This document shows, piece after piece, positions 3,635 to 52,740 of a DNA stretch of 64,000 nt. The notes under the pieces are model-generated. The model was not told where the DNA came from. It did no database searches and saw nothing but the letters and a program-made list of their open reading frames with translations. A program made the position numbers and the translations under genes. Source of the DNA: Euryarchaeota archaeon UBA256 (GTDB lineage Archaea > Thermoplasmatota > Poseidoniia > Poseidoniales > Poseidoniaceae); assembly GCA_002494645.1 (NCBI GenBank), contig DACE01000033.1:143024-207023 (forward strand), written 5' to 3'. Each line of letters opens with the position of its first letter. The stretch's first letter is position 1.

Positions 3635-4777
3635 GTGGTCGAACTCAAAGAAATTCAGCGTATCCGTTACCCTCCCTTTGAGGCGTCTCGATGGATTCCC
3701 TCTGCACTACCAATTGCTCAACGGACTGCTTCCATAGGAGATTTTGAGTCGAAGGCAGAGGCTCAAAGCTTCCTCAATACCAAAGGCCCGTCGGTTCAAA
3801 TTGGTGAAGAAGATTCATGGCTAATTGAACGGAGTTACAGATACGGCGAAGATGAACTCCATCCCATCAGCGAACTGGCTGTATTGGAACACGAAACCTT
3901 CCCGAATGTCGTGTACAGACAACGCCAAGGTTGGTATCTTATTCCTAATCCAATTCACAATATATTGCGGAAATTTATCAACGGTGTTGTCGTTATCCTC
4001 TTGCTTAGCCTGGCTTATCTCTTCATTTCTCCCATCCTTATCTTCCTCTCAATTCCAGTGTACGGAATTGAAACGGTTCGTTGGGGTTTGTTGGACTACC
4101 CCTCCCTTGCAGTTGTCGTTGTACCGTTAATTTTTGCACCCTTAATCGTGAGAGTATGTGCGAATTTACTTGAACTTAGGAGGCAGAATTCCTTTCTCAA
4201 ACGTGGACTAAAATCTCCTACGATCAAGTTTCTCAAATCGAGTATTTCTGACCAAGCGCTTGAATTCGACCTGATATTTCCAGAATGGGATGATGGCTGG
4301 AAGCATGTAGATGTCATGTGGAGAGTTGGTGTTCTACCTCCTGCTAGAGAAGTGTTATTCAAGGAACTCGCCCGTGAAGTCACTCGCCAACCGCCTCCAG
4401 GTCTAGCAACCGAATTACCGCATCATTGGGAAGAGGGTTTAGATGACGGAACTGCAGGTGGGGAGGATGCTCCTATGGAGCTCCAAGATGTCAAAGGAGG
4501 CTTCTATCTCCGCCCCATGCGAATAATGTCATCTGGAGGAAGCCAGCGATGGGATGATGGGAAATCAATCTGCCTCTCACCCCCCGAACCCATTTGGCCA
4601 GGAACCCTCAATTCCGACTTGATTCGCATCCATTGGGAATGCATTATACGGATTGAGCGGGAACAAAAAGGTGCTCTTCTTTGGGTTCAACCTCTCAAGG
4701 TCGCTCATTCAAAAACATTAGACAGAATCACCGATTTACCACTGCACGATGGCCGTTCCGAATTGGACATTAGATAA
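3635..4777 (+). CDS. Hypothetical membrane protein (3 predicted TM helices, soluble N- and C-terminal domains)
   Basis: Long ORF with a strong SD. Hydrophobic segments VVVILLLSLAYLFISPILIFLSIPVY and LAVVVVPLIFAPLIV. No recognisable catalytic motif. Confidence 0.55.
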   Translation: MVELKEIQRIRYPPFEASRWIPSALPIAQRTASIGDFESKAEAQSFLNTKGPSVQIGEEDSWLIERSYRYGEDELHPISELAVLEHETFPNVVYRQRQGWYLIPNPIHNILRKFINGVVVILLLSLAYLFISPILIFLSIPVYGIETVRWGLLDYPSLAVVVVPLIFAPLIVRVCANLLELRRQNSFLKRGLKSPTIKFLKSSISDQALEFDLIFPEWDDGWKHVDVMWRVGVLPPAREVLFKELAREVTRQPPPGLATELPHHWEEGLDDGTAGGEDAPMELQDVKGGFYLRPMRIMSSGGSQRWDDGKSICLSPPEPIWPGTLNSDLIRIHWECIIRIEREQKGALLWVQPLKVAHSKTLDRITDLPLHDGRSELDIR

Positions 4778-15182: not shown

Positions 15183-16229
15183 TTATGTTTTCACTGCATA
15201 ATCAACGGAATGGAAGTTGAGGGACATCAAGACCTTCGACGGATGAATTGTAACCGTAATGATGGGCGATTGACCATGGCCTCGCTCAAACATACCGGCA
15301 AGGATACCACATGTCAGTGCAGGGAGAGGAGAATGAACAGAAAACTCCGTGGCATCATCATCGTCCAAAAGACTGGATTTCATGCTCACATGACCCAACC
15401 CTCGTTGCGAAAGGTGAATATGGAATAATTCAGCCCAATCTGAAGAATGTTGAACAAAAACTGGAGTTTCAGAATCCTGAAAGCCCTGCTTAGCAGCGTA
15501 TGCTACCGACGCAAAGAGTTGGCATTCATTGGATGAGGTCCCCTCAACATGCCAATCCCTCAACCACGATGTTTGGCCGTAAAGCGGTCGGCCAATGAGG
15601 GCGTTGTACAACTGGTAAAACGCAGAGATATGAACGAAAAACGAACGTTGTTGGCCTCGGAAGAAACCATAACTACGAGCCTCTAACTCAAGATCAATTT
15701 CACCTTGAATCGTATCTGATTCACCATCAGCTCCCCATTGCAAATGAGGTGGTTTCTGAACCGATGCCATGGGTTCCGATTTCTGTTCGAAATCAAGGTC
15801 GACACGCTCTAGGGAGCGTTGTTGCCACCCCATGGTCCACCGTTCTTGTGTCAGGTACTCCTTGTGGGCAAGTGCCACGCCAACCGACCAAGCATCATGG
15901 CAGGGCATCATGATGTGATTGTTTTGAAGTGAAAATATCCCCCATCCCATAGAAATACAGCGGGCATTGAGACGCACCTGGATTTTTTTGCCCCCAAAGA
16001 ATCGAGGCCTACGGAACATGACATGATTGGAAAGAACTAATTCTTCTGCATCCGTTCCTGCGTAAATCAATTTCCGTCCCATAGGGGATTCAAATAACGC
16101 GTCCAAATGAGTGCATAAAAGTTCAAATTCACGAACACCGAATAATGCAATTGGAGTGTCCGTGTTGTCGAAAAAATATCCATTTCTCCCAAAGATAAAC
16201 CCTTGATGAAGTGGTAATTTTTGAGCCAT
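15183..16229 (-). CDS. Hypothetical cytoplasmic protein, possibly two V4R-like (4-vinyl-reductase-type) small-molecule-binding domains
   Basis: Long ORF in an operon-like context. Each half ends in a Cys-x4-G-type segment (MPCHDAWSVGVALAHKE; ALTCGILAGMFERGHG) reminiscent of V4R domains. This is a weak, by-eye call. Confidence 0.5.
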   Translation of the reverse strand: MAQKLPLHQGFIFGRNGYFFDNTDTPIALFGVREFELLCTHLDALFESPMGRKLIYAGTDAEELVLSNHVMFRRPRFFGGKKIQVRLNARCISMGWGIFSLQNNHIMMPCHDAWSVGVALAHKEYLTQERWTMGWQQRSLERVDLDFEQKSEPMASVQKPPHLQWGADGESDTIQGEIDLELEARSYGFFRGQQRSFFVHISAFYQLYNALIGRPLYGQTSWLRDWHVEGTSSNECQLFASVAYAAKQGFQDSETPVFVQHSSDWAELFHIHLSQRGLGHVSMKSSLLDDDDATEFSVHSPLPALTCGILAGMFERGHGQSPIITVTIHPSKVLMSLNFHSVDYAVKT

Positions 16230-21909: not shown

Positions 21910-22383
21910 TTAAGTCAGGGAAGTTCGCTTTTCTCCAGCCATGTTGAGGACTTCATCAAAATGTTCCGCAGAAACGGGTTGAACTGAGAGACGTTGGCCA
22001 CGTTGTAAAAGAGGCATTCCCTCAAGAGAGGGGTTTTCCTTCATTTCGTGCAAAGAAACTGGTTCGAGTTCGAGTAACGGTTCAAGGTCGACCATGAACC
22101 ATCGAGGATTTTCTGGCGATGATTTTTCATCGAAATACTTGCTCTTGGTATCCCACGATGTGAAGTCTGGATAGCCTTCGTTCAAAATTCGAGCGACACC
22201 AGCAACATGCGGAGGTTTCGTATTTGAGTGATAAAAGAGGACCAGATCCCCTTTTTTCATGGCATCCCGCATCATATTCCTCGCTTGGTAATTGCGGACA
22301 CCATCCCAATGCGTTTGGCCGTCTTGAACGAGCTGAGTGAAGGGGTAGACATCAGGTTCTGACTTCATGAGCCAATGGTTCAT
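21910..22383 (-). CDS. EVE (PUA-like) domain protein
   Basis: MNHWLMKSEPDVY...WDGVRNYQARNMMRDAMKKGDLVLFYHS is the EVE-domain signature. The start is moved to the ATG at 22383, because the longer ORF would overlap the upstream MMPL gene. Confidence 0.75.
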   Translation of the reverse strand: MNHWLMKSEPDVYPFTQLVQDGQTHWDGVRNYQARNMMRDAMKKGDLVLFYHSNTKPPHVAGVARILNEGYPDFTSWDTKSKYFDEKSSPENPRWFMVDLEPLLELEPVSLHEMKENPSLEGMPLLQRGQRLSVQPVSAEHFDEVLNMAGEKRTSLT

Positions 22384-22420
22384 GATTCTCCGTAGTGGCG
22401 GGGGTCTATGGATTGCTCGC

Positions 22421-25400
22421 TTACCAAGCATCAACGACATTGTCCACCAGAGCAGCATCCATGACGTCCTCTGTGCTGTTGACATGGCGAACGAGACCGA
22501 GTTTTTTGGCCATTGAGTTTGAACCACTCACCGCTCCAATCCCCATCTTTTCTAAGGTAACAAAGATCGCTGGAAGCAGCACAAGAGCACTGGCCGCCGC
22601 TACCCACAAGAGAATAAGAATCACCGTGATAAAGGGCTGAATTTCAGGGATGGGGATGTTGTACGCAGTGAACATCCCCAAAGATGTGACGACTGCTGCT
22701 TCGAAGAGCGACATTCCAGTCCCCACTGCTGCACTTCGTATTGCGTCAATACCTCCACCGAGTTCGCGAATACGATTGGCGATGTGAATCGAAAAGTCAA
22801 CACCAACTCCGACAAGAATCGAACCGATCATGACCGTAACAAGCGAAAGTGGAACGTCCATTCTCCACATCACCAACCATTGAAGTGCGACCGTTGCAAT
22901 GACCGGAGATGTCGTCCATATCGAATAGCGAATGTCCCGGAAGACCACTGCCAAGGTAATGAGTGTGAGAATGATCGCAAAACCAAGAGAAGTCCATTGC
23001 GAGCCAACAATCAATTCATTCACCTCAATAGCCGTTGCAGCCACTCCAGTGAGGTCTTCGGCAGTTTCACCGTGTAGGCCTTGGAAAGTGGATGTTCGTT
23101 CATTGACTAAATCGACACTTTTCGACGTGTCTGCTACGGGTATGAAGGGCATATCAACATAGATGAGGGAACGACCATAATCTTCGCTGATGAAAATTTC
23201 ACGAGTCTCTTTGGTGAGTGATGCATAAAATACATCCAAGAGAAAGATCTCACTTTGTTGAGAGCCTGGTAGACCAAAATCTCCGGGACGAGTCAAGAGA
23301 TCCCAAAAGGAGCCGTCGATGGATTGGCTTTGATTCAGCAAAACCTCAGCCGTGGTCTTCACATCTTCACACTGCTCTGAGCCCGCACAAGGAACTTGTT
23401 GAATGAACTCATTGAATTGCTCACCCGACACAGTCACCTGAATACCGGATGATTTCATCAAAAACACAACTGAAACAGCCGTTGTATTCTCAATATTATT
23501 GAGAGAAGCTTCCAGCGTATTGATCTGTGTCAGCAGTTCAACAGGGTCATCATTCGTATTGTCGTTGTCATTGCTGTCCCCACTCACGTTGGCGTTGACA
23601 AGAACCATTCCAACTTGACCAGCCTCGAATTCTTGACTGTACTGTTTCATTTTCACGACCGATGATTCACCTTCGGGAGCCATACCGAGAAGGTCGATGT
23701 TTTCCTCAACGTTAGCCCGACCAACCGTAGCAGAAACAAGAATGAGAAACAGGAATACTCCAATGACGGCTTTGTTGTAACGCACGGGAACCTCAACAAG
23801 AACATCAAAGGCCTTGAGAGGCGGGTGCTTGGGCTTTTTGAGGTCCAGAATGAGTGTTAAATTTGGGACCATAAACATCGTGAGAATGTAAACGACGACA
23901 ATGCCTCCAGAGAGTGCGATACCAACGGTTTGAATGGGCGCCATTGGTGTGAAGACCAGCGATATGAATCCAATCACAGTGGTAACGGCCGAAAGAAAAA
24001 CTGCACGCCCAGTTGATGAGAGTGACGCTCGCATTTTCTCATCACGAGTTCCCTCCTCCTCAGCATAGCGATTGGTAATATGTAATCCATACGACACCCC
24101 CAACGCGAGTAAAATCGGGCCAACGATGATGACGGTCATCGTTACTTCATAATTCGTCGCCCCCAGTATGCCAAGCGTCCAAAAGACTGCACATAACGTC
24201 GGTAGGCCTGCGATCACCAACACCTTGAACCCTTGAAGGGGGCGCATACCTGTCAAGCCAGTTTGGAGTAAGTCAGAGTGGAATACAAATAAACCGATGG
24301 CCACCAAGAGAACAGCCATAGGAAAGATTTCCCAAAAGAGTCGGAATGAAAATTCTGTGACAGCATTGGTGATTGGGACTGGACCAGTGAGCACCATGGA
24401 TAAGCCAAGATCTTCCCAATCGCAAACTCGATTGTCCGCCGGCTGTCCATTTTCAGTAAATTCACACGGTCGCTCCATTTTTGAGATAACGTCCAACATT
24501 TCTTGGGTGTCTGCAATGATGTCCTTTGCGGGCCTTGACTCTGTAACTGCAATCGCCATGATGGCTCGGTCGAGCAGGCCATCTGGGCCTCCGTCTTCTC
24601 CACCTTCAATATCTCGTGCTAATTTGTCCAAACCAGACGATGGCGAACCGTCCTCCTCGTACATCTCACCGATGACGAGGTCGATTGTTGTTTGACTTGG
24701 AATTTCATATGAGCCGCCTAATTCCTCATCAGTAATTGCAAATGCGTCGTTCACCTCTTCTGCAAGGTTACGGGAAGCGCAATCATCGTTGGGGTTCGCG
24801 CACCCGAGTTCTCCAATCTCAGTAACGATGGCTTCACGGATTCGTGGGGCACTTGAATTCACTTCCTTGAGCACTGTAGAGAGGGACAAGATGTAAATGA
24901 CGTCGTCGGAGTCATCTGAAAGATAAGGGTTGAGGATGTTTTCAACGTAACTGATTTCCTGCAGAATACGTTGCTGAGTGATGTTCTGATTTGAAGATTC
25001 AATATAGACAACCATGACATTTGTTGACCAGTCTTCCTCTACTTTGCTGATGAGTTCAGCCACTTGGCTGCCATCGGGCAAATAGACTTCCATATCTCCG
25101 TTCACGTTCAGTGCAGGATTGTCGGGGTCATTGTCAAACTGAGTGTCATCGAGGAAGCCGGATTGTGTCACGAAATACACGGTAAGGAGTAAAAATACGA
25201 GAATTGTTGGAATCGGAAATTTGGTAATGGCGCCGGTTGCACCTGTCTTTTGCCACTCACGTTTCATTCGTTTTGGGGCATCGAGAACCGCATCAATTGC
25301 ACGCTTTGAGTCAAGTGTATTGATCTGCCCAGCGAGTTGCTCACGTACGTGGCGAGAGGACTTGGCAATGGCATCAATGCGCTTGTTTCCTACCGATTCA

Positions 25401-28107: not shown

Positions 28108-29241
28108 TCATTCATCCTCTGAAAACAACATGGTTTGACGTGATGGTGGCGCTTCGAGTTGTCCTAATCTGAAACCAATTAATCGAATCGTTCCCTCGGA
28201 ATCTACACTGTTTGCAAAAAGTGAACTCGCCAATCGCATGAAGACATCAGTTTCATCCATGGCTACAGGGATACTGCGCCCCGTCGTATGGGTTTCAAAC
28301 CCCGTGTAGCGTATTTTCACTTCACCCATTCGGCCTGATACACCCAGTTCCACAGCACGTTTCATCACCGCCTGGACCAATTGTTTGAGGTATTCAAGGA
28401 CTTTTTCATGGTCGTTTTGGTCAGATTCAAACGTGTGTTCCTTACCGATGGACTTGCGACTTCGCAAAGGGCTCACGGTGCTGCTACTTTCTCCCTCAAT
28501 CAAGGCCATGAACCAGTTTGCAAAGCGTTCCCCTGCCAGTCGGGACAAGGTGAGTTCCCCTAATTCATGCACTTCATCGGCAGTAGAATATCCCCACTCG
28601 ACCAATTGGGTTGCACGTTTAGGTCCAATACCTGGAATTTCACGCAGATTACGACCGGTAAAAAAATCCTGAACTTCATCTGGCATGACCCGATAAATAC
28701 CGTGCGGTTTTCTAATCTCGCTGCTCATCTTGGCTAAAATTCGAGTTGGGCCAATCCCGAAAGAGGCAGAGAGATTCAATCGTTCCATGATGCTGATTTG
28801 CAGTTCTCGAGCCAATGCGAGTGCAGCATCCCAATCGCCATCAACGCGTTCGGTTACATCGAGGTATGCTTCATCGATGCTTGCCTGTTCAAAGACATCA
28901 GCCTCCTCACGCAAGATGTCCATCACTTTACGGCTCGCCCTACTGTAGAGTCCACGCGTGCCGCGAATGTACAGGGCTGGTCCAAATGGAGCAGCCGGGC
29001 ACCGACGCCATGCTTCGGAAATAGGCATAGCAGAACGAATCCCATAAACTCGTGCAGCGTAATTACAAGTTGACACTATGCCTCGTCCCCTTCCTTGCTT
29101 TGGGTCTGAACCAATGACCAAGGGTACTTCATCGTCCAATCCGTGATGGAGTGTTTCAACGGCTGCAAAAAATGCATCAAGGTCACAATGCAAAATGATT
29201 CGTTCAATAGAATCATGACCTGTACCACTCAACGTGTTCAC
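28108..29241 (-). CDS. dinB: Y-family DNA polymerase IV (DinB/Dbh/Dpo4 type), catalytic residues intact
   Basis: ILHCDLDAFFAAVE, steric-gate region VSTCNYAAR, SIDEAYLDVT and a HhH segment IPGIGPKRA. Confidence 0.9.
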   Translation of the reverse strand: MNTLSGTGHDSIERIILHCDLDAFFAAVETLHHGLDDEVPLVIGSDPKQGRGRGIVSTCNYAARVYGIRSAMPISEAWRRCPAAPFGPALYIRGTRGLYSRASRKVMDILREEADVFEQASIDEAYLDVTERVDGDWDAALALARELQISIMERLNLSASFGIGPTRILAKMSSEIRKPHGIYRVMPDEVQDFFTGRNLREIPGIGPKRATQLVEWGYSTADEVHELGELTLSRLAGERFANWFMALIEGESSSTVSPLRSRKSIGKEHTFESDQNDHEKVLEYLKQLVQAVMKRAVELGVSGRMGEVKIRYTGFETHTTGRSIPVAMDETDVFMRLASSLFANSVDSEGTIRLIGFRLGQLEAPPSRQTMLFSEDE

Positions 29242-29266
29242 GGCCTTAGAATATAGCCACAGGTGT

Positions 29267-29293
29267 TTGAACTTGATGTAAGGTTCAGTTCAA
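29267..29293. promoter_or_regulatory. Inverted repeat TTGAACT-N13-AGTTCAA (with nested TGAAC-N10-GTTCA GTTCA) in the dinB / radB-like divergent spacer; candidate operator
   Basis: Read directly from the sequence. It is the only extended dyad in the 101-nt divergent spacer. No known binding protein is assigned. Confidence 0.25.
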
Positions 29294-29342
29294 GCAAGGG
29301 GTGTTAGAAAGATACGATGACTTCCGATGAAGTCTTCTGTTG

Positions 29343-30140
29343 ATGGAGATGTTAGATGATAGAGGACAAACGTTGCTTGCTGCACAGCGAGCCTTCTCCA
29401 TTGTGGAGCACACTGCGAGCATCAATCTCGCAGATATTCAGCCACAGGCTGGACAAATTTACCATGTCACAGGACCCGGCTTTGCGGGAGATCGTATGCG
29501 CCCCATCGTCGAACAATGGGTTATTCAAGCCATTGAACACGAACAAACTGTGCACTGGATCGATGGTGCTTGCAGAATTAATCCTGCCCGATTCATTCCC
29601 CTTCTTGAACAACATAAACTCCCAATCAACGAGTCCCTCAGCCGAATCTTTCTCAGCAGAGGTTTCACCCTTCACCAATTGGACAGTCAACTCGCCCGCT
29701 TGCCTTCCGAATTAGCGATTACCAAGTCACCTATCGTAGTAGTTGATGGATTGCTCACGATGCACGAAGACGATGCCATTGGAACATTGGAATCCCGAAT
29801 TTTGTTGAGACGGCACATTCATGTCCTCGAACAAATCGCCAAGCAGCGGCAAGTCGCCGTGATTCTCATCACTGGAACTTCATCAGCAAAACGTCACGGG
29901 CGTCGCCTGGATTACATACGCAGGCACGCACAAAATCATCTTGATGGACGAATCGTTCAAAGAAACAGAACTTCGGTTCTTCGCCTCCATCACCCGCGAA
30001 GTGGCCAGTTTGGAATACTCGCAATATCAGCAGAGAATGGACAAACTCGTTTTCGAATGCGTCCATCGGTACGCACCAGTGAAATGGACATCACTTCACC
30101 GCATCTTGGAATTCCGACTGACCAAATTCAAGGAGACTGA
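29343..30140 (+). CDS. RadB/RecA-superfamily paralog with degenerate Walker A (predicted ATPase-inactive)
   Basis: Block-by-block parallel to archaeal RadB. GQIYHVTGPGFAGDR matches the P-loop, but GK[ST] is replaced by GDR. TVHWIDGACRINPARF matches YVDTEGGFSPERL. SPIVVVDGL matches Walker B. LEQIAKQRQVAVILITG matches ARRKNVAVIVVNQ. First ATG at 29343. Confidence 0.6.
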   Translation: MEMLDDRGQTLLAAQRAFSIVEHTASINLADIQPQAGQIYHVTGPGFAGDRMRPIVEQWVIQAIEHEQTVHWIDGACRINPARFIPLLEQHKLPINESLSRIFLSRGFTLHQLDSQLARLPSELAITKSPIVVVDGLLTMHEDDAIGTLESRILLRRHIHVLEQIAKQRQVAVILITGTSSAKRHGRRLDYIRRHAQNHLDGRIVQRNRTSVLRLHHPRSGQFGILAISAENGQTRFRMRPSVRTSEMDITSPHLGIPTDQIQGD

Positions 30141-32547
30141 CCTGCTGACCGGATTGCCGAATCATGGAGGAGGTCCATCCAAAAGGTGCTAGAATGGCCC
30201 AAATAGCTCGCTCCGCTATTGAACTGTAGTGATTCGGGCAAAGTTGGCATGAAGGATGGAGATGGTCGATTTCATCTGCGAGTCGCACTCGCTCCTGAAG
30301 AGGTTCTGCATTATGGCTCACCACGATATACCGAATGGTTGACCCAGGAGGAATTGTAGTTCCTTGTTCTTGTGCCCGAAGAAGAGCCGCATAGGTGAGG
30401 TTTTTGACACGATAACCGTCAAGATCTTTGCTCACACGTCGCGCGATGAGCCCCTGAATTGGTGGAATGTTTCGCTCATAAAGTTGAGATAAGTCACGAC
30501 GGTAGAGGCGAAGGACATCGTGTTGGGCTGAAGGGCCTGGACGTCCATTGATGCGTGTTCCTGCCGAGAGCAAATCCAATGACCGCTGTTGGAGTGAACG
30601 AATCCACGAAGGGGTTGAATGCTGACGCAGTTCAATCCCTCTCACTTTGTACTCTGTTCCGTCAAAAGCCCAATATTTCGTCAACGAACCAGCACCGTGC
30701 ATTCTACTCGGAAGAAAGGCAATGAATTCGTAAAATTGCTCATACTCGAGAGGTATTCCGATTTGGTCCGTGACACGTTGAGCAAACTCCTGTGCTGCCT
30801 TGATTTGAACATCTTTTGGGCGGTTCTTGGAATCGCTTAACCACACACAGTCAACGATTGCATGAAGAACTTCCCAACCTTCCTCTTGAGCCATTTCAAT
30901 CGTTTCCAAAAGAATGTCACGTGACCAAGCACAAATGGCTTCATGTGCCTCAATCCTTCCGAAACGAGCATTACGATATCCAGTATATCCAAAGCATGTG
31001 ACAAGAAGCCATTTCAATGCATTTTGTCGCAAATCAAAGGCGTCACCTTTCGTGATACGTTGGAGTTTTAATTGACGTCGTCGTTCAATGATCGGCGCTA
31101 CGACACGTCCAAGAAAGCCTTGATGACGTCCACAAGTGTGACTGTTAAGGCCGGGTACACCCAATGATTTTTCGTTGGGAAGCGGGAACATTCCATGACC
31201 GAATTCAGTCCGTAGTCGTCGATGGAGGAATTCAGTATGAGCCTTACTTGGCTCAAGTGGGACAAATGCTGCAGCATTCAGAGTTTCAGCAGGTTGACAG
31301 CACGTGCAATTGAGCGTCTCAGGAGAAATGTTTCTGGTTGCGATGATGCTTGGGAAGAGACTTGCAAAATCGAGTTCAATGACGGCAGAATGTACGCCTG
31401 CTTGACTGTCAAGGTAGAGTCCACCCCGGTCCGCATGCAACAACTCAAGTGCTGTTTTTGTATCCTCTGGACGGTTCTTTTTCCAAGGAACCAATACTCC
31501 ATCGTCCATTGCAACACGCATTTGTATGGCACTGATAACCGAACCCGGAGAGAGTCTCGAGATGATTTGAGCAGATTGCCTTGAATGTTGAGCGAGTTCA
31601 AACAAACCAGCAAGACCACCTTCACGAACAATGAAACTGTTAGCGAAATCCAAATGAAGTCGTCCCTTTGCAAAATAAGACCCGTATTTGTGCATTGTTT
31701 GGCCGTAAGAATGAACGGTTCGTTCCTTGGTTGTACGAGAAAGCCTCTCATCGGTTCGACCCAAACGTAAGTGAACAGCATGCAAGGAAGCATGGTGTTC
31801 AAGCGAGGGAAAAAGACGCTGGTCGCCTCCTCGCGTCACAATAATGTCTGGGTCGAAAATGTCAATCTGCTCTTGAATTGCCTCAAGAAATTCTGCCGTT
31901 GATGGAAACGATGAGCGTTGAAGTTGAACCGTATTCAGTACGTTGATCGGGGGCGCCATACCCTGTTCTTGCAACGGTTTTATTGACAGACTGCGGATGG
32001 GATTGAATTCAGATGCAGGTCCATCACCTGATTCAAATTCAAGATTCAATTGAACCACCAAAAAAGGAGGGAAATCTCCGGTATGTTCCGTTGAATCCCT
32101 TACAGGTTGCAGGTGCCCATCCTCAAAGGTCACAGCGTGAAAGGGCACACATCTGTACTCATTGAGAAAACGCTGAGCATGGTGTGCGTCGACAGAGTAA
32201 AGCGAATACATGTGAAACGAACCGCGCGTTTCAATGTGCTCAGCGAGGCCACGTAGAAGACGAGAGCATAATACTTCAACTTCAAGGACATCGCATAAGT
32301 CACTGGTTCCAAGGGTGAGTTGAGCTCGGCGCCATATGCGTTGACCTATGTTGAAACGTTGCATGATTTCTGGTTGTTCCAGCCAATGTTCAAGGCGTTC
32401 AAGCGATGAAGGTGTGCCGTGAACGTGAAGCGTTGGCGCCCAATCAATGTGGCATGAATGGGCGTTTCCATCACGGTCTACCACCCATGCAACCATGCCG
32501 GTTGCTGCATCATTCTCATGCACATCAAGAAGCCAACCTTCAATCAT
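30091..32547 (-). CDS. polB: Divergent family-B DNA polymerase, 3'-5' exonuclease motifs inactivated
   Basis: Collinear with archaeal PolB: MIEGWLLDV start, DPDIIVTRGGDQRLFPSL, GRLHLDF, motif A LDFASLFPSII, motif B KWLLVTCFGY, motif C LHAIVDCV and a C-terminal QVSLLEFG PIP-like box. The first ATG is at 32547; the ORF track's 32574 start is a TTG. Confidence 0.85.
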   Translation of the reverse strand: MIEGWLLDVHENDAATGMVAWVVDRDGNAHSCHIDWAPTLHVHGTPSSLERLEHWLEQPEIMQRFNIGQRIWRRAQLTLGTSDLCDVLEVEVLCSRLLRGLAEHIETRGSFHMYSLYSVDAHHAQRFLNEYRCVPFHAVTFEDGHLQPVRDSTEHTGDFPPFLVVQLNLEFESGDGPASEFNPIRSLSIKPLQEQGMAPPINVLNTVQLQRSSFPSTAEFLEAIQEQIDIFDPDIIVTRGGDQRLFPSLEHHASLHAVHLRLGRTDERLSRTTKERTVHSYGQTMHKYGSYFAKGRLHLDFANSFIVREGGLAGLFELAQHSRQSAQIISRLSPGSVISAIQMRVAMDDGVLVPWKKNRPEDTKTALELLHADRGGLYLDSQAGVHSAVIELDFASLFPSIIATRNISPETLNCTCCQPAETLNAAAFVPLEPSKAHTEFLHRRLRTEFGHGMFPLPNEKSLGVPGLNSHTCGRHQGFLGRVVAPIIERRRQLKLQRITKGDAFDLRQNALKWLLVTCFGYTGYRNARFGRIEAHEAICAWSRDILLETIEMAQEEGWEVLHAIVDCVWLSDSKNRPKDVQIKAAQEFAQRVTDQIGIPLEYEQFYEFIAFLPSRMHGAGSLTKYWAFDGTEYKVRGIELRQHSTPSWIRSLQQRSLDLLSAGTRINGRPGPSAQHDVLRLYRRDLSQLYERNIPPIQGLIARRVSKDLDGYRVKNLTYAALLRAQEQGTTIPPGSTIRYIVVSHNAEPLQERVRLADEIDHLHPSCQLCPNHYSSIAERAIWAILAPFGWTSSMIRQSGQQVSLLEFGQSEFQDAVK

Positions 32548-32824
32548 CGTTCGCCATCTCTTCCAGTGCAGCAACGCGGTTGGATAGGTCGTCGAGACGT
32601 TTCATCAGCCCGATGAGCATGCTGAGAACGACCGGTTGCCATGTATTGTGTGCAGGCAGCATTCCTCCCGCAGACCTCCGCTGACGCACGTCATTGAACA
32701 ACTGATCCAAAAGAACTCGCTCATTGGGTGAAAGAGCCCGATGAAAGGGCATCAAGGCATTCAATTCAGCATCTGCTCTCGTTCGCCATGGTGGCACACT
32801 TCGACCCATACGCCCGTTGTTCAA
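32540..32824 (-). CDS. Small hypothetical protein (94 aa) overlapping the polB start
   Basis: The ATG ORF's stop codon (32540-32542) lies 8 nt inside polB. It has a basic N-terminal half and an amphipathic, acidic C-terminal helix (RLDDLSNRVAALEEMANDD). No recognisable family. Confidence 0.4.
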   Translation of the reverse strand: MNNGRMGRSVPPWRTRADAELNALMPFHRALSPNERVLLDQLFNDVRQRRSAGGMLPAHNTWQPVVLSMLIGLMKRLDDLSNRVAALEEMANDD

Positions 32825-32873
32825 CGGGAGGAAGAGATGCTTTCTCTTGACCCGTTTTGTGAAACTGAAAGTG

Positions 32874-35112: not shown

Positions 35113-35829
35113 TTAATCGAGCCAGGGAATAACATCCGGGATTTCAGCAAAAATATTGGCTGGGACGGCTATTTTAATCTTTGAAACTCCCCCGAGTTTT
35201 TCCGCACTGGCACGCTGCCATGCATCGAATTCATCAAAGGATTGCATCGAGAGGACCGGATTGTTTTTCTTATTCCATTCCAAACTTTTCATTTCAGTCC
35301 CTGGAGGGTCGTGGCCCGAACAGACGATGGTTGAACCCTGAAACCGCTCAAGGACCGTTAGAGCGTCCCAATGAACGTGAGTTCGTCCGCTTGGTAGGTC
35401 ATCCCGTCCGACACCACCCTCTCCGTTGAAGAGGAAATCACCGGTCATCATGTAGCCAGGCACATGAACGATCATGGAATCGTTGGTATGTCCTGGTGAA
35501 AAGTGAAATTGAATTGGTACTGAACCGAGCATGATTTTCTCTTCATCGTCCACATATTGAGTTACGCCAAGACTGGCTGTTTGGTTTGACATAACATATT
35601 CACAAGACAATTGCTCTTGAAGTGAGAAACATGCCGTAATGTGGTCTGCATGCGTGTGCGTGGCAATGGCATAGCGGAGGGTCAAACCTTGTGATTTAAG
35701 GAGCGAAGTATACCGTTCGAGATAGTCGTAAACAGGGTCTACGAGTGCAGCTTCATTGGTTGCTTCGTCAACGATCAAGTAGGTCATTGCCCAGACTCCT
35801 TCATTCAGTTGTTCAAATCGCATGAACAT
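35113..35829 (-). CDS. Metallo-beta-lactamase-fold hydrolase (glyoxalase II / ETHE1-like)
   Basis: The THTHADH motif, downstream SPGHTNDS and GD/H ligands. The start is trimmed to MFMRFEQL to remove a non-conserved-looking extension that overlaps the rmuC upstream region. Confidence 0.75.
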   Translation of the reverse strand: MFMRFEQLNEGVWAMTYLIVDEATNEAALVDPVYDYLERYTSLLKSQGLTLRYAIATHTHADHITACFSLQEQLSCEYVMSNQTASLGVTQYVDDEEKIMLGSVPIQFHFSPGHTNDSMIVHVPGYMMTGDFLFNGEGGVGRDDLPSGRTHVHWDALTVLERFQGSTIVCSGHDPPGTEMKSLEWNKKNNPVLSMQSFDEFDAWQRASAEKLGGVSKIKIAVPANIFAEIPDVIPWLD

Positions 35830-35902
35830 GGCGACACAAAGGTACGACTTGAACTTTGACACCTTCGTATTCATCAAATACTGTTGCCGCCGTCTTGATG
35901 GC

Positions 35903-37138
35903 ATGGCGGGTGTAATCGAATACGGATTTTTACTGGTTGGTTGCCTTCTGGGCATGGCTCTCGGATGGTTACTAGCAAAGAACCGATTAGGTATGGACAT
36001 GGCGAGAGCTGAAGCGGATGCAACGGCGCGAGATCAGGTTTTTGATGAAAAATCAAAGCTCTTAGAGGCTCAAATGGAGAACGTCGCGAACCGCATTTCT
36101 CAACAAAACTCCGAAGCCTTCCTTCAACTCGCTGAAGAACGGTTAGGTCGTGTGACGACATCAGCTGAAAAAGACCATGAAGCGAGGAAAAAAGAAATGG
36201 AAGAATTGATGAAACCGATGACGGAATCGCTCTCAAACCTCGACCAAATGTCTCGTGATTTGGAAAAAGAACGATTGAATGCCTATCAGGGAATGAAACG
36301 CCACATGGAATTATTGGAACAAAATACCCATCGCTTAGGCAAAGAAGCCAATGCTCTGTCCACTGCACTTCGTAAGAGTTCCAGCGTCCGTGGTGACTGG
36401 GGAGAAGTCGCTCTGAAGAATCTTCTTGAAATGGCCGGCATGACAAAAAATACGGATTTCTTTGAACAGCAAGGTGATGAACGAGGTAATCGGCCTGATT
36501 TCGTCGTTAACCTTCCGGGAAACGGTGCCATACCAATCGATGCAAAAACAACTGCAAAACACTATCTGGAATCCCTCGACCAAGAAGACCCCGACCAGAG
36601 GGCCGCAAAACTGGCATTGCATGCAAAATCAATGCGTGGGCGAGTAACTGAATTGGCCCGTAAGGACTACCTTTCTGGTGTAAGTGGTCGTGCCGAATTT
36701 GTAGTGATGTTCGTCCCTTCGGAGGCATTGATTTCCTCTGCATTTGAGATTGACCCCACATTGCATTCCGATGCTATGGACCGAGGTGTCATCATTTCTG
36801 GGCCTGCATCGATGATAGCCTTGCTCAAAACCGCTGCTCTGTATTGGCAGCAAGTGCGCTTTGCTGAAGAGGCCGCACAAGTCGTCGGTGTTTCACAGGA
36901 ATTCTACAAACGAATGGCAACATGGAGTGGCCACTTTGCTGAGGTCGGCAAGCGACTGGATAAAGCAACTGAATATTACAATAAAGCAGTGGGATCATGG
37001 GACCGAAATGTTCTCCCCCAAGGCAAAAAATTGGAAGAACTGGGCATCCATGTGAACCAAACAAAATCGCTGGTTGAACCGCAACCAATAACGGAGAGCC
37101 CGCGACTTCCAACCAGCCTTAACCAAGAAGATGAGTAG
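35903..37138 (+). CDS. rmuC: DNA recombination protein RmuC
   Basis: N-terminal TM helix, long coiled coil, RGDWGEVALKNLLE, and a nuclease-like core (PDFVVNLPGNGAIPIDAK...FVVMFVPSE). Confidence 0.85.
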   Translation: MAGVIEYGFLLVGCLLGMALGWLLAKNRLGMDMARAEADATARDQVFDEKSKLLEAQMENVANRISQQNSEAFLQLAEERLGRVTTSAEKDHEARKKEMEELMKPMTESLSNLDQMSRDLEKERLNAYQGMKRHMELLEQNTHRLGKEANALSTALRKSSSVRGDWGEVALKNLLEMAGMTKNTDFFEQQGDERGNRPDFVVNLPGNGAIPIDAKTTAKHYLESLDQEDPDQRAAKLALHAKSMRGRVTELARKDYLSGVSGRAEFVVMFVPSEALISSAFEIDPTLHSDAMDRGVIISGPASMIALLKTAALYWQQVRFAEEAAQVVGVSQEFYKRMATWSGHFAEVGKRLDKATEYYNKAVGSWDRNVLPQGKKLEELGIHVNQTKSLVEPQPITESPRLPTSLNQEDE

Positions 37139-37186
37139 GATGTCAACCGTGCGAGCCTTCTTCAAAGTGTAGGCTGTGGCCTCACC

Positions 37187-37912
37187 ATGCATCCCAATGA
37201 AGTCATTTACCTCGAACATGACGGTAAGGTCCTCTTGGTTGATGAAACGGGAGATGGACCTCTTCTTCCACAAAAAGGTCGTATCAGCCACGAGGGATAC
37301 CTTCGCTTTCCGACCCATGATGAACTCGTTAAGTTGGAAATCACCTATCAACGGAAGGGATTGACGACGATTCGCTTTGGTCAAGAGAAGGCACGGGTAG
37401 TGAAGGGCTATCCGAACATTGCTTGGCCCGACCAATGGGCATGGAAGGATGACTGCATATCCGACAATGGCGTTCACCCGGTAGCACGAGAAGCAATTTA
37501 TCGATCAATTCATCGCTTGGTCTCCAAAGTGATGGTCCAGAATTCAGACGGCCATGTTTTGATGGCACAGGTTGAGCGAGGGCATTTCAGAGGCTTTTGG
37601 ACACTACCTGGGGGATACATGGACCACGACGAACATCCTGCAATTGGTTGTGTTCGAGAGACGCTTGAGGAACTTGGACTGGAGATTGTCCTCACCGATG
37701 AAGAACCGGTGATCACACAGAACATCTTCAATGATGAAGGCATTTCTTTCGTCTCGTTTACCTACCGTTCAACGTGGGACGGTCAACTTGAGGAATTGAC
37801 ACTCCAAACAGAGGAGATAGCCGCAGCAGCGTGGTTTTCTCCACAAGATGCTCTCGACCAAGCAGTCTCCCATTTTGACAGAGAAGCCCTTCGAAGCCTG
37901 GTTGGCGAGTGA
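37187..37912 (+). CDS. NUDIX hydrolase with N-terminal extension
   Basis: Nudix box GGYMDHDEHPAIGCVRETLEELGLE. Confidence 0.85.
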   Translation: MHPNEVIYLEHDGKVLLVDETGDGPLLPQKGRISHEGYLRFPTHDELVKLEITYQRKGLTTIRFGQEKARVVKGYPNIAWPDQWAWKDDCISDNGVHPVAREAIYRSIHRLVSKVMVQNSDGHVLMAQVERGHFRGFWTLPGGYMDHDEHPAIGCVRETLEELGLEIVLTDEEPVITQNIFNDEGISFVSFTYRSTWDGQLEELTLQTEEIAAAAWFSPQDALDQAVSHFDREALRSLVGE

Positions 37913-42797: not shown

Positions 42798-44384
42798 TCA
42801 CGATTGAATTCTGAAAATCGACCAAGTAGGCGTCGTCCATGGCTGAGTGAACGTGAGCGGAGTATCCCCGCTATGAATCAGAGTCGAATTGAGTGGGACA
42901 TAGTTTGTATCGGGTGCGACCAATACATAGGAAATATTGTTGCCCCCGTCCAAAAGCATGGTGGCATCTGATGGGTTAGACCAGATGGCTGAAATATTCT
43001 CTTCACCAGAGAGATCGATGTGCGTTTTCAAACTGTACATGAGGTGAACGGCCAATGATGGTTCTGCAACAAAGAGAAAGGTCGAATTTTCTCCGAGGTA
43101 TTCATCCAATTCCCCACCGGCCTCCTCGGTCCACAACTGCTGCCCTACAAGACTTGTAAAGAGCGTGAAGGGGAGAATGAGAAGCAAGCCTAGAAGTAAA
43201 GCACGCTTATTCACCGCTCTGTCAACATCGATGGAAGGTTCAGCTTGTTCGTGAAGTAGGTGAAGAATGAAGATGAGGGGTAGGATGAGGAGTGTGAGAT
43301 AACGGCCATTATTGCCCAGAAGGAAAGCGGTTTCGAGAACAGAGGCATTCCATAAATTCGCTTCAAACACCCACAAAGAGGCGATGTAGAACAGCAAACT
43401 TACACAAAGAACCGCCACAAAAGTCGTAACCATTGTGATGCTATGGCCCACTGCCCCACGTGCTGACTTGAGGAGCGGTGCGCAAAATGGCCACAAACAG
43501 AAACCTACGAGAATGAAGATGCCGACACCATCAATTATTGCCAAAAGGAAAGCGAAGAGAAAGGTCACTGGTTGGTCTCGAAGAACACCCAACGTCCCGT
43601 TGAATTGAGTCAAACCGAACACCACCAAACATACGAGGGTTGTCCCAGCAGCCCATGTTGCCATCAACCAAGGGCGCTGAGTTGCAGGTGTCTGGTGCTT
43701 CAAACTCAATCTCCCATCCACAAAATCCCAGAGCCATCCAGCAACAAGAACACCGCAAAAGGCAAGGAGGCTGATGTCCATTGCAAAGCCTTTCCAAGCC
43801 AAAACCAAAACAACTGAAGTGGCCATCAATGTGTAGGTGAGGCGCCTCGTAGAAGGTTTCGAAGCGTCTGCAATCATCAACGGGAAAATGCTTAATCCAA
43901 AAAAGATACACAAAAACACCTCGTCGTAACCTCGCCCAGTGGCGAAGACAAGAGGAGGACTCCATGCCACCAATGCGCCCCATCTCGGGTCGTATGATTG
44001 GCCGAGACCTTCTCGCCTCCATCGTGGAACAATACCCGCCATTGTAACCAAGACCAAAAGACCTGTCAAAGCGCCTATTTTCACGGCAAATTCGCTTACA
44101 AACCAAGGTCCAATATATCCATCATAACCCCCCGATGATGTCGTTTCATAGGTTTGTTCAGCATCATATCGCGTTGGACCCCACGGGTAGTCTTGGCCTG
44201 TTTCACTTTCATCCAATGCAACATTAAGACGAACATGCGCATCGAGGCCAAGATCGCTGGTGGCAACTGCACATACCTGTAAGAGCAGACCCATAGCGAG
44301 CAGGAGATACCACCAACGCCGATGGTTGACTTGAGGGAAGTCCACGATTTGGCCACATGCTATTTGGATAACATTCTTTCCCAC
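42798..44384 (-). CDS. Polytopic membrane protein with C-terminal extracytoplasmic domain, possibly GT-C-fold glycosyltransferase
   Basis: About 11 TM helices, an acidic first loop (LGLDAHV..ALDESE) and a ~130-aa soluble C-terminal domain. This architecture resembles ArnT/PMT-type enzymes. No WWDYG motif, so it is not AglB. Confidence 0.55.
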   Translation of the reverse strand: MGKNVIQIACGQIVDFPQVNHRRWWYLLLAMGLLLQVCAVATSDLGLDAHVRLNVALDESETGQDYPWGPTRYDAEQTYETTSSGGYDGYIGPWFVSEFAVKIGALTGLLVLVTMAGIVPRWRREGLGQSYDPRWGALVAWSPPLVFATGRGYDEVFLCIFFGLSIFPLMIADASKPSTRRLTYTLMATSVVLVLAWKGFAMDISLLAFCGVLVAGWLWDFVDGRLSLKHQTPATQRPWLMATWAAGTTLVCLVVFGLTQFNGTLGVLRDQPVTFLFAFLLAIIDGVGIFILVGFCLWPFCAPLLKSARGAVGHSITMVTTFVAVLCVSLLFYIASLWVFEANLWNASVLETAFLLGNNGRYLTLLILPLIFILHLLHEQAEPSIDVDRAVNKRALLLGLLLILPFTLFTSLVGQQLWTEEAGGELDEYLGENSTFLFVAEPSLAVHLMYSLKTHIDLSGEENISAIWSNPSDATMLLDGGNNISYVLVAPDTNYVPLNSTLIHSGDTPLTFTQPWTTPTWSIFRIQS

Positions 44385-44609: not shown

Positions 44610-45740
44610 ATGGGGGAGGCGACGGTCGGTGGCGACCCTGAGAATCGCCAACACACCAACTTACCTTTTCGCATGGCTGAGATGGAGTTGACCATTGCCA
44701 TCCCTGAGCGCTACCCACTTGCGAATGAGGTCAATACGATTGTTAGAGAATGGTATTTCCAATTTAACTTATTGAGAAACGATTGGAACAAACAACACGT
44801 TTCAGCGATACTTTTCGGAATCATCGCTTTTGGCTTGGGATCAATTTCTACAGAACTGTGGGCAGGTGGCGATGCCAAGGTCGCTGGCCTCGATGGTATT
44901 ATGGCCGTTAGTGGATTCCAATTCTTCCAAATCCTTGTTTCAATCCTGCTTTGGACCTGGTTTATCTACCAAGCATGGACACTTTTTCCCGTCATGCGAG
45001 TTCATGCGATTTCTCTCCTTGTGATGTGGAACGGCTTGATGGTCTCGCAAATTTATTTCCAGCGGAACAATTCTACGTTCCCATTCGGCCTCAGTCTTTC
45101 GGAGATGATGGAGGGAACCCTGATCATCCTCGTGGTCTTTTTCTTCCTCTTTTTCTTCTGGAAAGCAGTGATTGAAACTCGTGACCTCCACGTTGAGGTG
45201 AACCATTTGCATGAAGACGTCCGAGTTATGGAAACTGAGATGGCTGAGCATTCCCTCAAGGGTTGGACTGCGATTTTTGGGTTTTGGATTGGATTGATCA
45301 TGATGACGACCTGGACAGGTGTTCGTCATATTTCATCATACGGAGATCAAAATCTTGGCTACCTCGTCATCCATTTGCTTACTGGGGTTGTATCAATCCC
45401 CTTGTTTTTCTTCATCCTTTGGTATCCCCAACGCATGTTAGGTGAACAGGCCCAAGTACGAACCCGTGCCGCACTTGATGCAGCCATTGAAATGGAAGGC
45501 GAGGGCGTGACCATCGAAGCCAAGGCGAAATGTCCCGATTGTTCAGAACCTTCGTTGTTGATGAGAGAAACTTCTGGGTCCTTGGTACACCCCTGTCAAC
45601 AGACTGGCTGTTCAACCATGGTTACAATAGGAACAGCCTGTGCCACATGCAATACAAAAATGTCAAGCCGTCTTGAATGCAAAGCATGTGGAGTCAATGC
45701 TCCAGCGCTTGACTATTTCCCAGACCAGGATGTGTGGTGA
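44610..45740 (+). CDS. Hypothetical membrane protein with C-terminal double zinc ribbon
   Basis: At least 6 TM helices, then CPDCSEP...HPCQQTGC...CATCNTKM...CKACG. The start could instead be the ATG at 44673. Confidence 0.55.
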   Translation: MGEATVGGDPENRQHTNLPFRMAEMELTIAIPERYPLANEVNTIVREWYFQFNLLRNDWNKQHVSAILFGIIAFGLGSISTELWAGGDAKVAGLDGIMAVSGFQFFQILVSILLWTWFIYQAWTLFPVMRVHAISLLVMWNGLMVSQIYFQRNNSTFPFGLSLSEMMEGTLIILVVFFFLFFFWKAVIETRDLHVEVNHLHEDVRVMETEMAEHSLKGWTAIFGFWIGLIMMTTWTGVRHISSYGDQNLGYLVIHLLTGVVSIPLFFFILWYPQRMLGEQAQVRTRAALDAAIEMEGEGVTIEAKAKCPDCSEPSLLMRETSGSLVHPCQQTGCSTMVTIGTACATCNTKMSSRLECKACGVNAPALDYFPDQDVW

Positions 45741-51783: not shown

Positions 51784-52740
51784 ATGGACGAAGGTCTACC
51801 GGCGACCATTCCCTTCCTCCCACGATCCTTCCACAGCCATGAGAAAGGCCACCTCGTTATCGGGATGGATGGGGAATTTCTTCGGATGGACCAAAATTAT
51901 GGTATTCTAGAGGAATATGCCACGCCATTTCCGATGAGAGTGAGCCATGCCGTTCATGTTGGAGATCATCTCTTTGCCACATGGATTGATGGCGAACTCA
52001 TGCTTGCAAGAATGGGTTCATTGAGCCTCAGCGACAGTCCTAAAGAAGGCCCGAAGCGAGCAGAATTACGAACTTCAAATCAAAATGCCGGAAAATATCA
52101 CCCCAAAGGAAACCGTTGGTCGCATGTTCTCAACGCTGAACCGTTAGCTATGGCGGTGGATGAATCTGCATTGGTATTCAATCTGTGGAAACGTGGCCTC
52201 TATGCCCTTGACCACGACGCAAAGGAACTTTGGAGACAACAAGACCCAAAGTGGAGTTATGCAAAACGACGGCCGCGAAATGAAGAGATTCTCGCCATTC
52301 ACCTCCATGATGAGGAATTCACCATCACTTCGCGTGGTGGAAGAGCACAACGTCGTTCCATGTCGACAGGGGATTTAATTGAAGAGTTCATTCTCAACGG
52401 TCCTGAAGCACCCCTTGAACATCACTTTAGGCATCAAAACCATCACCTCATCTGCTCGACGCAAGGTGAACTTTGTTGGCTAGAGAATAATTCCGTTATT
52501 CAACGTGTCCAATTGAAAGGACCCGTCCAGAGTGCTGTTTGGGACCCCCATATACCAGGGTGGAGACTTTCTGGCTGGCGTGAGGAGGTACTCATTTCAA
52601 GACGCAAGACAGAACAGCACACATGGGAAGAAATCCCTGTCCATATCCAGCCAGTCAAAGGTGGGGCTATGATTCTGTTTAACAACGGTACTTGGTCAAA
52701 CAGTCACTTCGAGAGCCTTGTGGCTCAGGAAGAAGAGTGA
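51784..52740 (+). CDS. Hypothetical protein (possibly beta-propeller-like)
   Basis: Long ORF with repeated beta-strand-rich W/G-containing segments. No motif recognised. Confidence 0.5.
   Translation: MDEGLPATIPFLPRSFHSHEKGHLVIGMDGEFLRMDQNYGILEEYATPFPMRVSHAVHVGDHLFATWIDGELMLARMGSLSLSDSPKEGPKRAELRTSNQNAGKYHPKGNRWSHVLNAEPLAMAVDESALVFNLWKRGLYALDHDAKELWRQQDPKWSYAKRRPRNEEILAIHLHDEEFTITSRGGRAQRRSMSTGDLIEEFILNGPEAPLEHHFRHQNHHLICSTQGELCWLENNSVIQRVQLKGPVQSAVWDPHIPGWRLSGWREEVLISRRKTEQHTWEEIPVHIQPVKGGAMILFNNGTWSNSHFESLVAQEEE

Follow-up and report, generated by a model that had tools for sequence, protein, structure and literature searches.

The window analyzed here comprises 64,000 nucleotides of contig DACE01000033.1 from Euryarchaeota archaeon UBA256 (Poseidoniaceae). 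It carries an open reading frame (ORF) for a family-B DNA polymerase that very probably serves as catalytic subunit in a PolB2 'mutasome', the archaeal B-family translesion polymerase complex exemplified by Sulfolobus Dpo2. The window PolB2 is an ordinary member of a described family in an already sampled lineage. Apparently undescribed are a clade-specific insertion in the family-wide CxCC...C hairpin of the polymerase, a promoter element (CAnTTTCAsTTTCA) before the genes of the small partner protein PPB2 and PolB2 and, in relatives, before that of the RadA-like partner iRadA, and a conserved C-terminus of PolB2 that resembles a PCNA-interacting protein (PIP) box, together with an intact P-loop in the 'inactive' RadA of many relatives.

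The open frame extends from a TTG over 30091..32574 on the minus strand. The ATG at 32547 (MIEGW...) was taken as the likely start because a 98%-identical protein and all other relatives begin with MIEGW. The Pfam profile DNA_pol_B matched the protein with an E value of 4e-20 (72 bits), and DNA_pol_B_exo1 scored 19 bits, under its cutoff of 23. The top NCBIfam models were PolB2-type 'type B DNA-directed DNA polymerase' families, a product name also used for haloarchaeal plasmid PolB2 genes; they were NF004418 with 403 bits (cutoff 692) and NF004416 with 350 bits (cutoff 516). An AlphaFold2 (AF2) model calculated from an alignment of 146 PolB2-type sequences reached a predicted local distance difference test score (pLDDT) of 94 and a predicted template modeling (TM) score of 0.92; an earlier run with 12 sequences (pLDDT 73, palm and fingers <50) was set aside. 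In Foldseek, the model was superimposed on the 9N, KOD and Tgo polymerases with TM scores of 0.70-0.76 over ~880 columns, covering the full length of 9N and KOD. According to the model, the window PolB2 has the full family-B fold with N-terminal, exonuclease-like, palm, fingers and thumb domains, and its exonuclease-like domain is structurally present with the catalytic residues gone. More than 1000 homologs and 538 confirmed genomic matches were found, which marks the ORF as a genuine, conserved gene rather than a chance reading frame. Close relatives with names belonged to Candidatus Poseidoniales (Marine Group II, MG-II) or Thermoplasmatota, and all 80 genomic loci from species-representative genomes came from Poseidoniales-type metagenome-assembled genomes (MAGs), the best being a Poseidonia sp. 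with 79% identity.

Catalytic motifs were placed by phmmer and profile alignments to the KOD, Tgo and 9N polymerases. A first-pass annotation, made by eye, had described an altered-motif family-B polymerase at 30091-32547, and the alignments agreed with it nearly residue for residue. In Exo I, the aspartate that had been read as replaced by asparagine is D141, aligned to N168, and E143 is kept as E170. The Exo II core TYNGDNFDF of canonical enzymes is TRGGDQRLF in the window PolB2, with the reported changes of N210 to Gly and D215 to Leu. Exo III had been called absent. This holds insofar as no YxxxD was found in the window PolB2 between the aligned blocks and the region is ~45 residues shorter than in Tgo (profile 267 to 317 versus Tgo 238 to 333), but by eye the segment S-F305-I-V-R-E309 (31621-31638), where helix 305-322 begins, may be a remnant with Tyr replaced by Phe and Asp by Glu. 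The Exo I and Exo II columns were unconserved among relatives, the Exo I column not at all. In the polymerase domain, motif A retains its Asp and has Phe for Tyr, at exactly the interval first given; motif B has Val for Asn and Thr for Ser, and motif C has Ile for the first Asp and keeps the second, both as originally read. The window PolB2 thus lacks the intact replicative set of Exo I DxE, Exo II NxxxFD, Exo III YxxxD, KxxxNSxYG and DTD. The steric gate against the sugar is provided by an aromatic ring, and the hydroxyl group is not involved. For this reason, the change from Tyr to Phe in motif A is probably conservative; it is mostly confined to the Poseidoniales-type clade, and a few other PolB2 representatives share the Phe.

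To judge from the sequences of relatives, the losses in motifs B and C and in the exonuclease motifs are a signature of the PolB2 (Sulfolobus Dpo2) family and not peculiarities of this gene, as they had been presented at first. HMMER was run exhaustively against 1.84 billion representatives and returned 2464 relatives, of which the best 150 were surveyed. All 150 had motif C in the form [LIV]H[GA]x[VT]D[SC], motif B in the form KW.LV.CFGY and a CxCC...C cluster past motif A, and nearly all had [AST]D[RK]GG ahead of motif A. In the 146 aligned PolB2-type sequences, D373, D393 (motif A) and D566 (motif C) were invariant, the latter two being the metal ligands that the first-pass annotation had correctly listed as retained. 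G375 and G376 were invariant or nearly so, and AF2 predicted a helix at residues 366-372. The triphosphate-binding residues R490, K494 and K512 were kept in at least 90% of these sequences.

With the first motif C Asp gone, the motif B Asn, Ser and Tyr gone and all exonuclease motifs degenerate, the protein could also be a catalytically inactive pseudo-polymerase that acts as a DNA- or partner-binding structural or regulatory subunit. Before 2020, PolB2 had been interpreted in this way by comparison with Pol epsilon, whose C-terminal half is inactive, and Makarova et al. 2014 (PMC4104785) predicted the family to be inactive. We consider it improbable for the window protein, because the conservation of D393, D566 and the three triphosphate-binding residues in 146 divergent sequences is hard to explain without catalysis, and because Dpo2 with the same IxD in motif C is active. 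Purified Dpo2 from S. islandicus and S. solfataricus polymerizes robustly, has no detectable 3'-5' exonuclease and extends mismatched and lesion-opposed ends (PMC8764526), and it is needed in vivo for damage-induced mutagenesis (PMC8764526; PMC11791011). By analogy with this biochemistry, the earlier suggestion of an active, proofreading-less accessory polymerase appears sound. Its companion, altered fidelity, would apply to the extension of mispaired ends, the speciality of Dpo2, but not to insertion on undamaged DNA, which is of high fidelity in Dpo2, with misincorporation at 1e-4 to 1e-5.

The identity of the window polymerase as PolB2 was settled by its gene context of PPB2, iRadA and an adjacent DinB, which the first-pass annotation had missed. 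The stop codon of PPB2 overlaps the PolB2 ATG by 8 nt. In BLASTP, the PPB2 protein matched the PPB2 of the Halobaculum plasmid iRadA-PPB2-PolB2 operon with 33% identity and an E value of 6e-11. Its N terminus is an MGRT-type arm with Arg3 and Arg9, a motif described in PMC11791011, and a start of the form MGR[ST].P was found in 80 loci. Products of relatives carry the precomputed assignment PF26485 (DUF8156). A Pfam scan of the window PPB2 with a profile set that did not include PF26485 gave no match, and the sole hint of a trimer was a weak matrilin coiled-coil match (E 0.18). The iRadA protein matched Pfam Rad51 (E 1e-7), gave weak NCBIfam RadB/RadA matches and was 29% identical to Halobaculum iRadA (E 3e-9). 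The PDB alignment to the RadA core begins at residue 70 of its 266-residue ORF, read from the TTG at 29340, and covers Walker B; this residue corresponds to position 167 in P. furiosus RadA (1pzn) and position 61 in core-only RadA constructs. Walker A is degenerate in the window iRadA, with GPGFAGDR at residues 44-51 versus GxxxxGK[ST]. A survey of 81 Poseidoniales iRadA orthologues found the full GxxxxGK[ST] (e.g. GPGRSGKS) in 36 and GK only in 18; the Lys was lost in 27, among them the window iRadA and its closest relatives. Walker B (hhhhD) was kept in all 81. As the P-loop is intact in some orthologues and has lost its Lys in others, it seems to be decaying independently inside Poseidoniales. 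The dinB gene is divergent from iRadA and adjoins it in the majority of the 85 related loci whose downstream DNA was long enough, and iRadA was convergent with PolB2 in every related locus with enough DNA (tblastn, ~85 Poseidoniales loci).

This linkage also bears on the reading of the ORF as the main or a co-replicative polymerase that merely lost proofreading, for which its full-length family-B architecture, its PIP-like C terminus and its conservation in all sampled Poseidoniales species loci could be cited. Such a role is highly improbable in view of the obligate linkage to PPB2, iRadA and a Y-family polymerase and the family-wide loss of the exonuclease; moreover, Dpo2 is distributive and not needed for growth (PMC8764526; PMC8100216). 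PolD and PolB3 were sought among the scanned ORFs of the window, and neither was found there.

Base composition was even over the whole 64-kb window, the locus sits among housekeeping genes (class-I and alanyl tRNA synthetases, 2-hydroxyacid dehydrogenase and RtcB), and synteny was kept across species just 45-80% identical. We therefore give almost no credence to an origin of the polymerase in a virus, casposon or other mobile element, with no role as a chromosomal repair gene. The idea has precedents, since many archaeal viruses, the magroviruses of Poseidoniales among them, encode family-B polymerases, and since haloarchaeal megaplasmids and Leptospira LE1-like phage records contain homologs of PolB2. 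However, a search of a phage collection returned the Leptospira LE1-like records and a weak halovirus match, none of them close and none from a Poseidoniales virus.

Table 1. Coordinates of the PolB2 locus features in the window
Feature	Position	Strand	Description
DinB, Y-family DNA polymerase IV	28108..29241	-	NCBIfam NF002677 263.8 bits (cutoff 256); Pfam IMS 4e-37 and IMS_C
Second conserved element	29262-29278	+	GGTGTTTGAACTTGATG (variants GGTGTTTCAAGTTGATG, AGTGTTTGAAATTCATCC); just upstream of dinB in most DinB-bearing loci
iRadA promoter region, degenerate element copy	29282..29316	+	GGTTCAGTTCAAG ... GGGGTG ... AAAGATACG
iRadA	29343..30140	+	RadA/Rad51 ATPase core without N-terminal domain; convergent with PolB2
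PolB2 (Dpo2-type) family-B DNA polymerase	30091..32547	-	catalytic subunit, 818 aa; palm with D393 and D566; exonuclease-like domain without active site
Candidate PIP-like box, residues 802-809	30121..30144	-	QVSLLEFG, aligned to KOD C-terminal QVGLSAWL region
Motif C	30847-30867	-	YSDTDG to HAIVDC (564-IVD-566)
Motif B	30976-31014	-	KILANSYYGY to KWLLVTCFGY
H470-T-C472	31132-31140	-	part of Cys cluster, hairpin base
Clade-specific insertion, residues 421-463	31159..31287	-	43 aa, between motif A and fingers; helix 433-447 and short strands predicted
CTCC, residues 414-417	31297..31308	-	C414, C416, C417; part of family-wide Cys cluster
Motif A	31342-31374	-	LDFRSLYPSII to LDFASLFPSII
Beta-alpha loop and D(K/R) motif	31420..31500	-	GVLVPWKKNRPEDTKTALELLHA then D373-R374-G-G; loop itself 31432-31500
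Exo II	31801-31854	-	KOD/Tgo DPDVLITYNGDNFDF to DPDIIVTRGGDQRLF
Exo I	32035-32052	-	KOD/Tgo LAFDIET to VQLNLEF
PPB2 (arCOG07300 / DUF8156)	32540..32809	-	89 aa, starts MGRSVPPWR; 33% identical to Halobaculum PPB2
Box downstream of promoter element	32836-32843	-	AAAGCATC
Box downstream of promoter element	32846-32853	-	GGGTCAAG
Promoter element	32860..32873	-	CACTTTCAGTTTCA, tandem ANTTTC (CAnTTTCAsTTTCA); begins 64 nt upstream of PPB2 ATG

Between motifs A and B, the first-pass annotation had noted a Cys/His-containing insertion of ~35 residues. The insertion is real, but it is 43 residues long, and the Cys and His residues flank it and lie outside the insertion proper, in a Cys cluster that is family-wide. 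C414, C416, C417 and C472 were kept in at least 90% of the 146 PolB2-type sequences, and the cluster aligns to the KOD hairpin with the C428-C442 disulfide. The cluster may bind a metal or form a disulfide. Most HMMER alignments were interrupted at 420/463. Among the best 150 representatives, the spacer from CxCC to HxC was 43-52 residues long only in the Poseidoniales-type clade and 10-15 residues in most others; a few unrelated proteins have independent insertions at the same hairpin position. Inside the clade, the insertion is conserved as FVPLxPxxAxxxFxxR...LFP, and it was modeled at a pLDDT of ~80-97. We also considered it as a loop that would bind iRadA in the manner of Rad51 oligomerization, and rejected this. 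In the published models (PMC11791011), the beta-alpha loop and D(K/R) motif form the binding site for iRadA and for the PPB2 N-terminal arm, and in the window PolB2 this landmark is the invariant D373-R374, which precedes motif A; the loop is also present in PolB2 proteins without the insertion. Furthermore, haloarchaeal PolB2, which has an iRadA partner, contains no such insertion in the alignment. The insertion is more plausibly a lineage-specific surface addition.

At the C terminus of PolB2, the PIP-like sequence is kept in the clade as QxxLxxF or TLFDF(F), with the strict pattern Q..[LIMV]..[FYW] in 65 of 116 sequences. A clamp motif on PolB2 or iRadA is a theme in PMC11791011, which the PIP-like box fits. 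The 3' ends of PolB2 and iRadA overlap by 50 nt (30091-30140) in the window and by ~60-90 nt in three related loci (L001, L007 and L010). The codons of the PIP-like box region run into the 3' end of the oppositely oriented iRadA gene, and the PolB2 tail codons just past the box lie opposite those of the iRadA C terminus. Antisense or transcriptional interference between the two units is a possibility.

Upstream of PPB2, a conserved promoter element was found. In nearly all relatives (L001, L007-L090), it lies ~55-80 nt upstream of PPB2, most often 63 nt, despite diverged surroundings. Its architecture is CA[C/n]TTTCA[C/G]TTT[C]A - N(~8) - GGGTC - N(~8) - AAAGAT/AAGCAT, corresponding to 32836-32873 in the window, and its core holds 1.3-1.8 bits of information per position versus <=0.5 in the flanks. 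The copy before PPB2 is the sole perfect match in the window. A position weight matrix (PWM) was trained on the sites upstream of PPB2 and applied with a threshold of >=14 bits, with the regions upstream of iRadA serving as an independent test set. It detected the element in 74 of 81 PPB2 promoters and 35 of 83 iRadA promoters, counts that overstate independence because the loci are phylogenetically related; the background was 13 matches in 1.6 million positions, or 0.002 expected per upstream region scanned. Because of the enrichment in iRadA promoters, the convergent PPB2-PolB2 and iRadA units appear to share a cis-element. Full-strength copies of 21-23 bits were present at the same iRadA position in more distant relatives, e.g. 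L009, L045 and L061, and no strong PWM match was found in the iRadA-DinB intergenic region of the window. A second conserved element just upstream of dinB does not match the PolB2 promoter PWM and may be a dinB promoter or operator. Two more PWM sites were detected in the window, one of 17.5 bits (35498-35511, minus strand) and one of 16.7 bits (44198-44211, plus strand). The first is located within a metallo-beta-lactamase-fold gene and the second within a 528-residue membrane-protein ORF; both may be due to chance. Further element copies were evaluated as regulon members and dismissed, since those in the window are in ORFs and stray copies in L062 and L068 stand before no obvious genes; no regulon could be defined from them.

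By sequence, the element resembles the damage-response element of Sulfolobus. In Sulfolobales, the damage-responsive element ANTTTC (consensus AATAGTTTCRGWDTACTCWS) is bound by Orc1-2 and needed for induction by damage (Sun et al. 2018, PMC6061795). The window element consists of two tandem ANTTTC hexamers (ACTTTC AGTTTC), and ACTTTCAG fits ANTTTCRG. As in Sulfolobales, it precedes a PolB2 operon, and its spacing to the ATG is similar (-64 to -51 in the window, -23 to -55 in Sulfolobales). It differs in being a tandem repeat with a 6-nt period that is followed by GGGTC and AAAGAT boxes, and it comes from a different phylum. It is conceivable, though doubtful, that the element is the operator of a Poseidoniales DNA damage (ultraviolet, UV) response that is mechanistically related to the Sulfolobales Orc1-2/ANTTTC system. 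Among the scanned ORFs of the window, no Orc1/Cdc6 gene, of the Orc1-2 type or other, was found.

Several of these observations weigh against an active PolB2 mutasome with a shared damage-responsive control. In replicative PolBs, the incoming nucleotide is contacted by an Asn, a Ser and a Tyr of motif B, all three absent from the window PolB2, and motif C is devoid of its first Asp; because these residues are lost, activity has to be argued via homology to Dpo2, which is <30-35% identical. Since both NCBIfam scores are below their cutoffs, the window clade is divergent from the curated PolB2 models. PPB2, PolB2 and iRadA cannot form one operon, as iRadA is on the opposite strand. The full Walker A in 36 of 81 RadA-like partners is a poor fit to the label 'inactive'. 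Finally, the copy of the element in the window's own iRadA promoter is degenerate, with 2.2 bits, and the Sulfolobus motif whose likeness to the element prompts the idea of a damage response is just 6 nt long.

The window PolB2 system was compared with known systems. It can be regarded as already described, because Timinskas et al. 2025 (supplement of PMC11791011) assign Poseidoniales operons to a group '3b (PPB2-PolB2-iRadA)', with EHR76802/EHR76801/EHR76800 from the MG-II genome CM001443 as an example, and report a model of the complex EHR76801/76800/3xEHR76802 at a pLDDT of 87. CM001443, which is locus L048 of our set, belongs to the same order and has the same gene order with convergent iRadA and DinB. 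Its PolB2, EHR76801, is 51% identical to that of the window and is classed as PolB2 in PMC11791011. In contrast, the window represents another species, and its iRadA has no P-loop Lys. The insertion, the promoter element and the DinB linkage go unmentioned in the sections and supplement passages of PMC11791011 that were consulted. A literature search on Poseidoniales DNA polymerase turned up virus papers only.

With Sulfolobus/Saccharolobus Dpo2, the window PolB2 shares the motif C IxD with the second Asp kept (401-IID-403 in the S. islandicus enzyme, Sis; Feng et al. 2022 mBio, PMC8764526), the lack of an exonuclease active site, the D(K/R) motif after the beta-alpha loop, and the linkage to a ~90-residue helical MGR(T/S) protein and to a RadA core without N-terminal domain. 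Decay of the exonuclease domain is stronger in Sulfolobus PolB2, as stated in PMC11791011, whereas the exonuclease-like fold of the 818-residue window protein is largely intact. The window system further differs from Dpo2 in the 43-residue insertion in the Cys hairpin, the motif A Phe in place of the steric-gate Tyr, the PIP-like box on PolB2 itself, the convergent rather than co-directional iRadA and the adjacent DinB. The PolB2 on a Halobaculum magnesiiphilum megaplasmid (NZ_CP081959.1) is ~31% identical over 97% of the length. Like the window protein, haloarchaeal PolB2 has IVD, KWILVSCFGY, ADRGG and CGCC...C, and its PPB2 starts with MGRT; unlike it, haloarchaeal PolB2 is plasmid-borne, is encoded in a co-directional iRadA-PPB2-PolB2 order, contains no 43-residue insertion and has the Exo I region deleted outright. 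Replicative archaeal PolBs (KOD, 9N, Tgo and Pfu; PolB3/PolB1) have in common with the window PolB2 the overall fold, the motif A Asp, the second motif C Asp, the fingers Arg and Lys residues, a hairpin where KOD has its C428-C442 disulfide and the position of the C-terminal PCNA box. They are set apart from PolB2 by its lost Exo I-III residues, the change of NSxYG to VTCFG, the loss of the first motif C Asp and the requirement for accessory subunits. Functional analogies are drawn in PMC11791011 to Pol zeta (Rev3-Rev7), a B-family damage-tolerance extender with a dead exonuclease and accessory subunits, and to E. coli Pol V (UmuD'2C-RecA), in which the polymerase is bound to a RecA/Rad51-family protein via an oligomerization-like motif and the N-terminal arm of a small subunit reaches the active site. 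The accessory proteins of Pol zeta and Pol V are unrelated to those of PolB2, and Pol V is a Y-family enzyme.

If the window proteins behave like their orthologues, PolB2 would polymerize via D393 and D566 without proofreading and mainly extend mispaired or lesion-opposed primer ends once an inserter has placed a nucleotide, for which the neighboring DinB is a plausible candidate. The complex would be a PolB2 : iRadA : PPB2(3) heteropentamer, the stoichiometry of the model in PMC11791011 (Timinskas et al. 2025). By analogy with the published models, the loop before D373-R374 would grip iRadA as RadA subunits grip one another, and one PPB2 N-terminal arm (MGRS...) would reach toward the active site. 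From the comparisons made here, the C-terminal QVSLLEFG probably tethers the complex to PCNA, and the PPB2-PolB2 and iRadA units are probably co-regulated through CAnTTTCAsTTTCA. Their shared control may serve to answer DNA damage, as would befit an archaeon of the sunlit surface ocean.

In the main, these results confirm that 'inactivated-looking' PolB2 proteins are real translesion polymerases and that Poseidoniales have the full three-gene system. Marine Group II lives in sunlit surface water, and the PolB2-DinB cluster with its shared element hints at UV tolerance and the generation of mutations. The promoter element provides a concrete sequence with which an archaeal damage regulon can be sought outside Crenarchaeota. 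If the relation to the Orc1-2 system were true, an Orc1/Cdc6-type damage regulon would span archaeal phyla and control the PolB2 mutasome in a very abundant surface-ocean archaeon. The insertion and the variable iRadA P-loop are natural variants for dissecting the roles of iRadA and the Cys hairpin, and the 43-residue insertion and frequent P-loop retention could be the marks of a mutasome variant that depends on nucleotide and is distinct in function.

Among the relatives of PolB2, large intein-like insertions were observed within motif B after KWxLVTC (ending ...HN/CFGY, the slash marking the junction) in P0133, P0135, P0136, P0140, P0193, P0199, P0213, P0220, P0228, P0245, P0254, P0258 and P0269, and one within motif A in P0240. 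As so many representatives hold such insertions in motif B, inteins are common even in the accessory PolB2. PolB2-type polymerases 29-34% identical to that of the window were found in the Leptospira LE1-like phage/plasmid-prophage records H16-H19 (KF114878-80, KX656785); these are bacterial PolB2 proteins on a mobile replicon. Typical PPB2-PolB2-iRadA-DinB loci were also present on NZEQ01000045.1 (L036), from a MAG labeled Verrucomicrobiales bacterium, and on CALDQY010000189.1 (L089), from a MAG labeled Rhodobiaceae bacterium; these labels probably reflect binning contamination and not transfer.

Next to the PolB2 cluster, a conserved group of DNA-metabolism genes was found at 35113-37912, with synteny in L007 and L008. 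Besides a protein of the metallo-beta-lactamase fold, it encodes RmuC at 35822..37138 and a NUDIX hydrolase at 37187..37912. An EVE-domain protein is encoded at 21910..22527. A 1914-residue ORF occupies 54280-60024 (+), and ORFs of 300-530 residues without Pfam matches are located at 3635..4777, 15183..16229, 42798..44384, 44610..45740 and 51784..52740.

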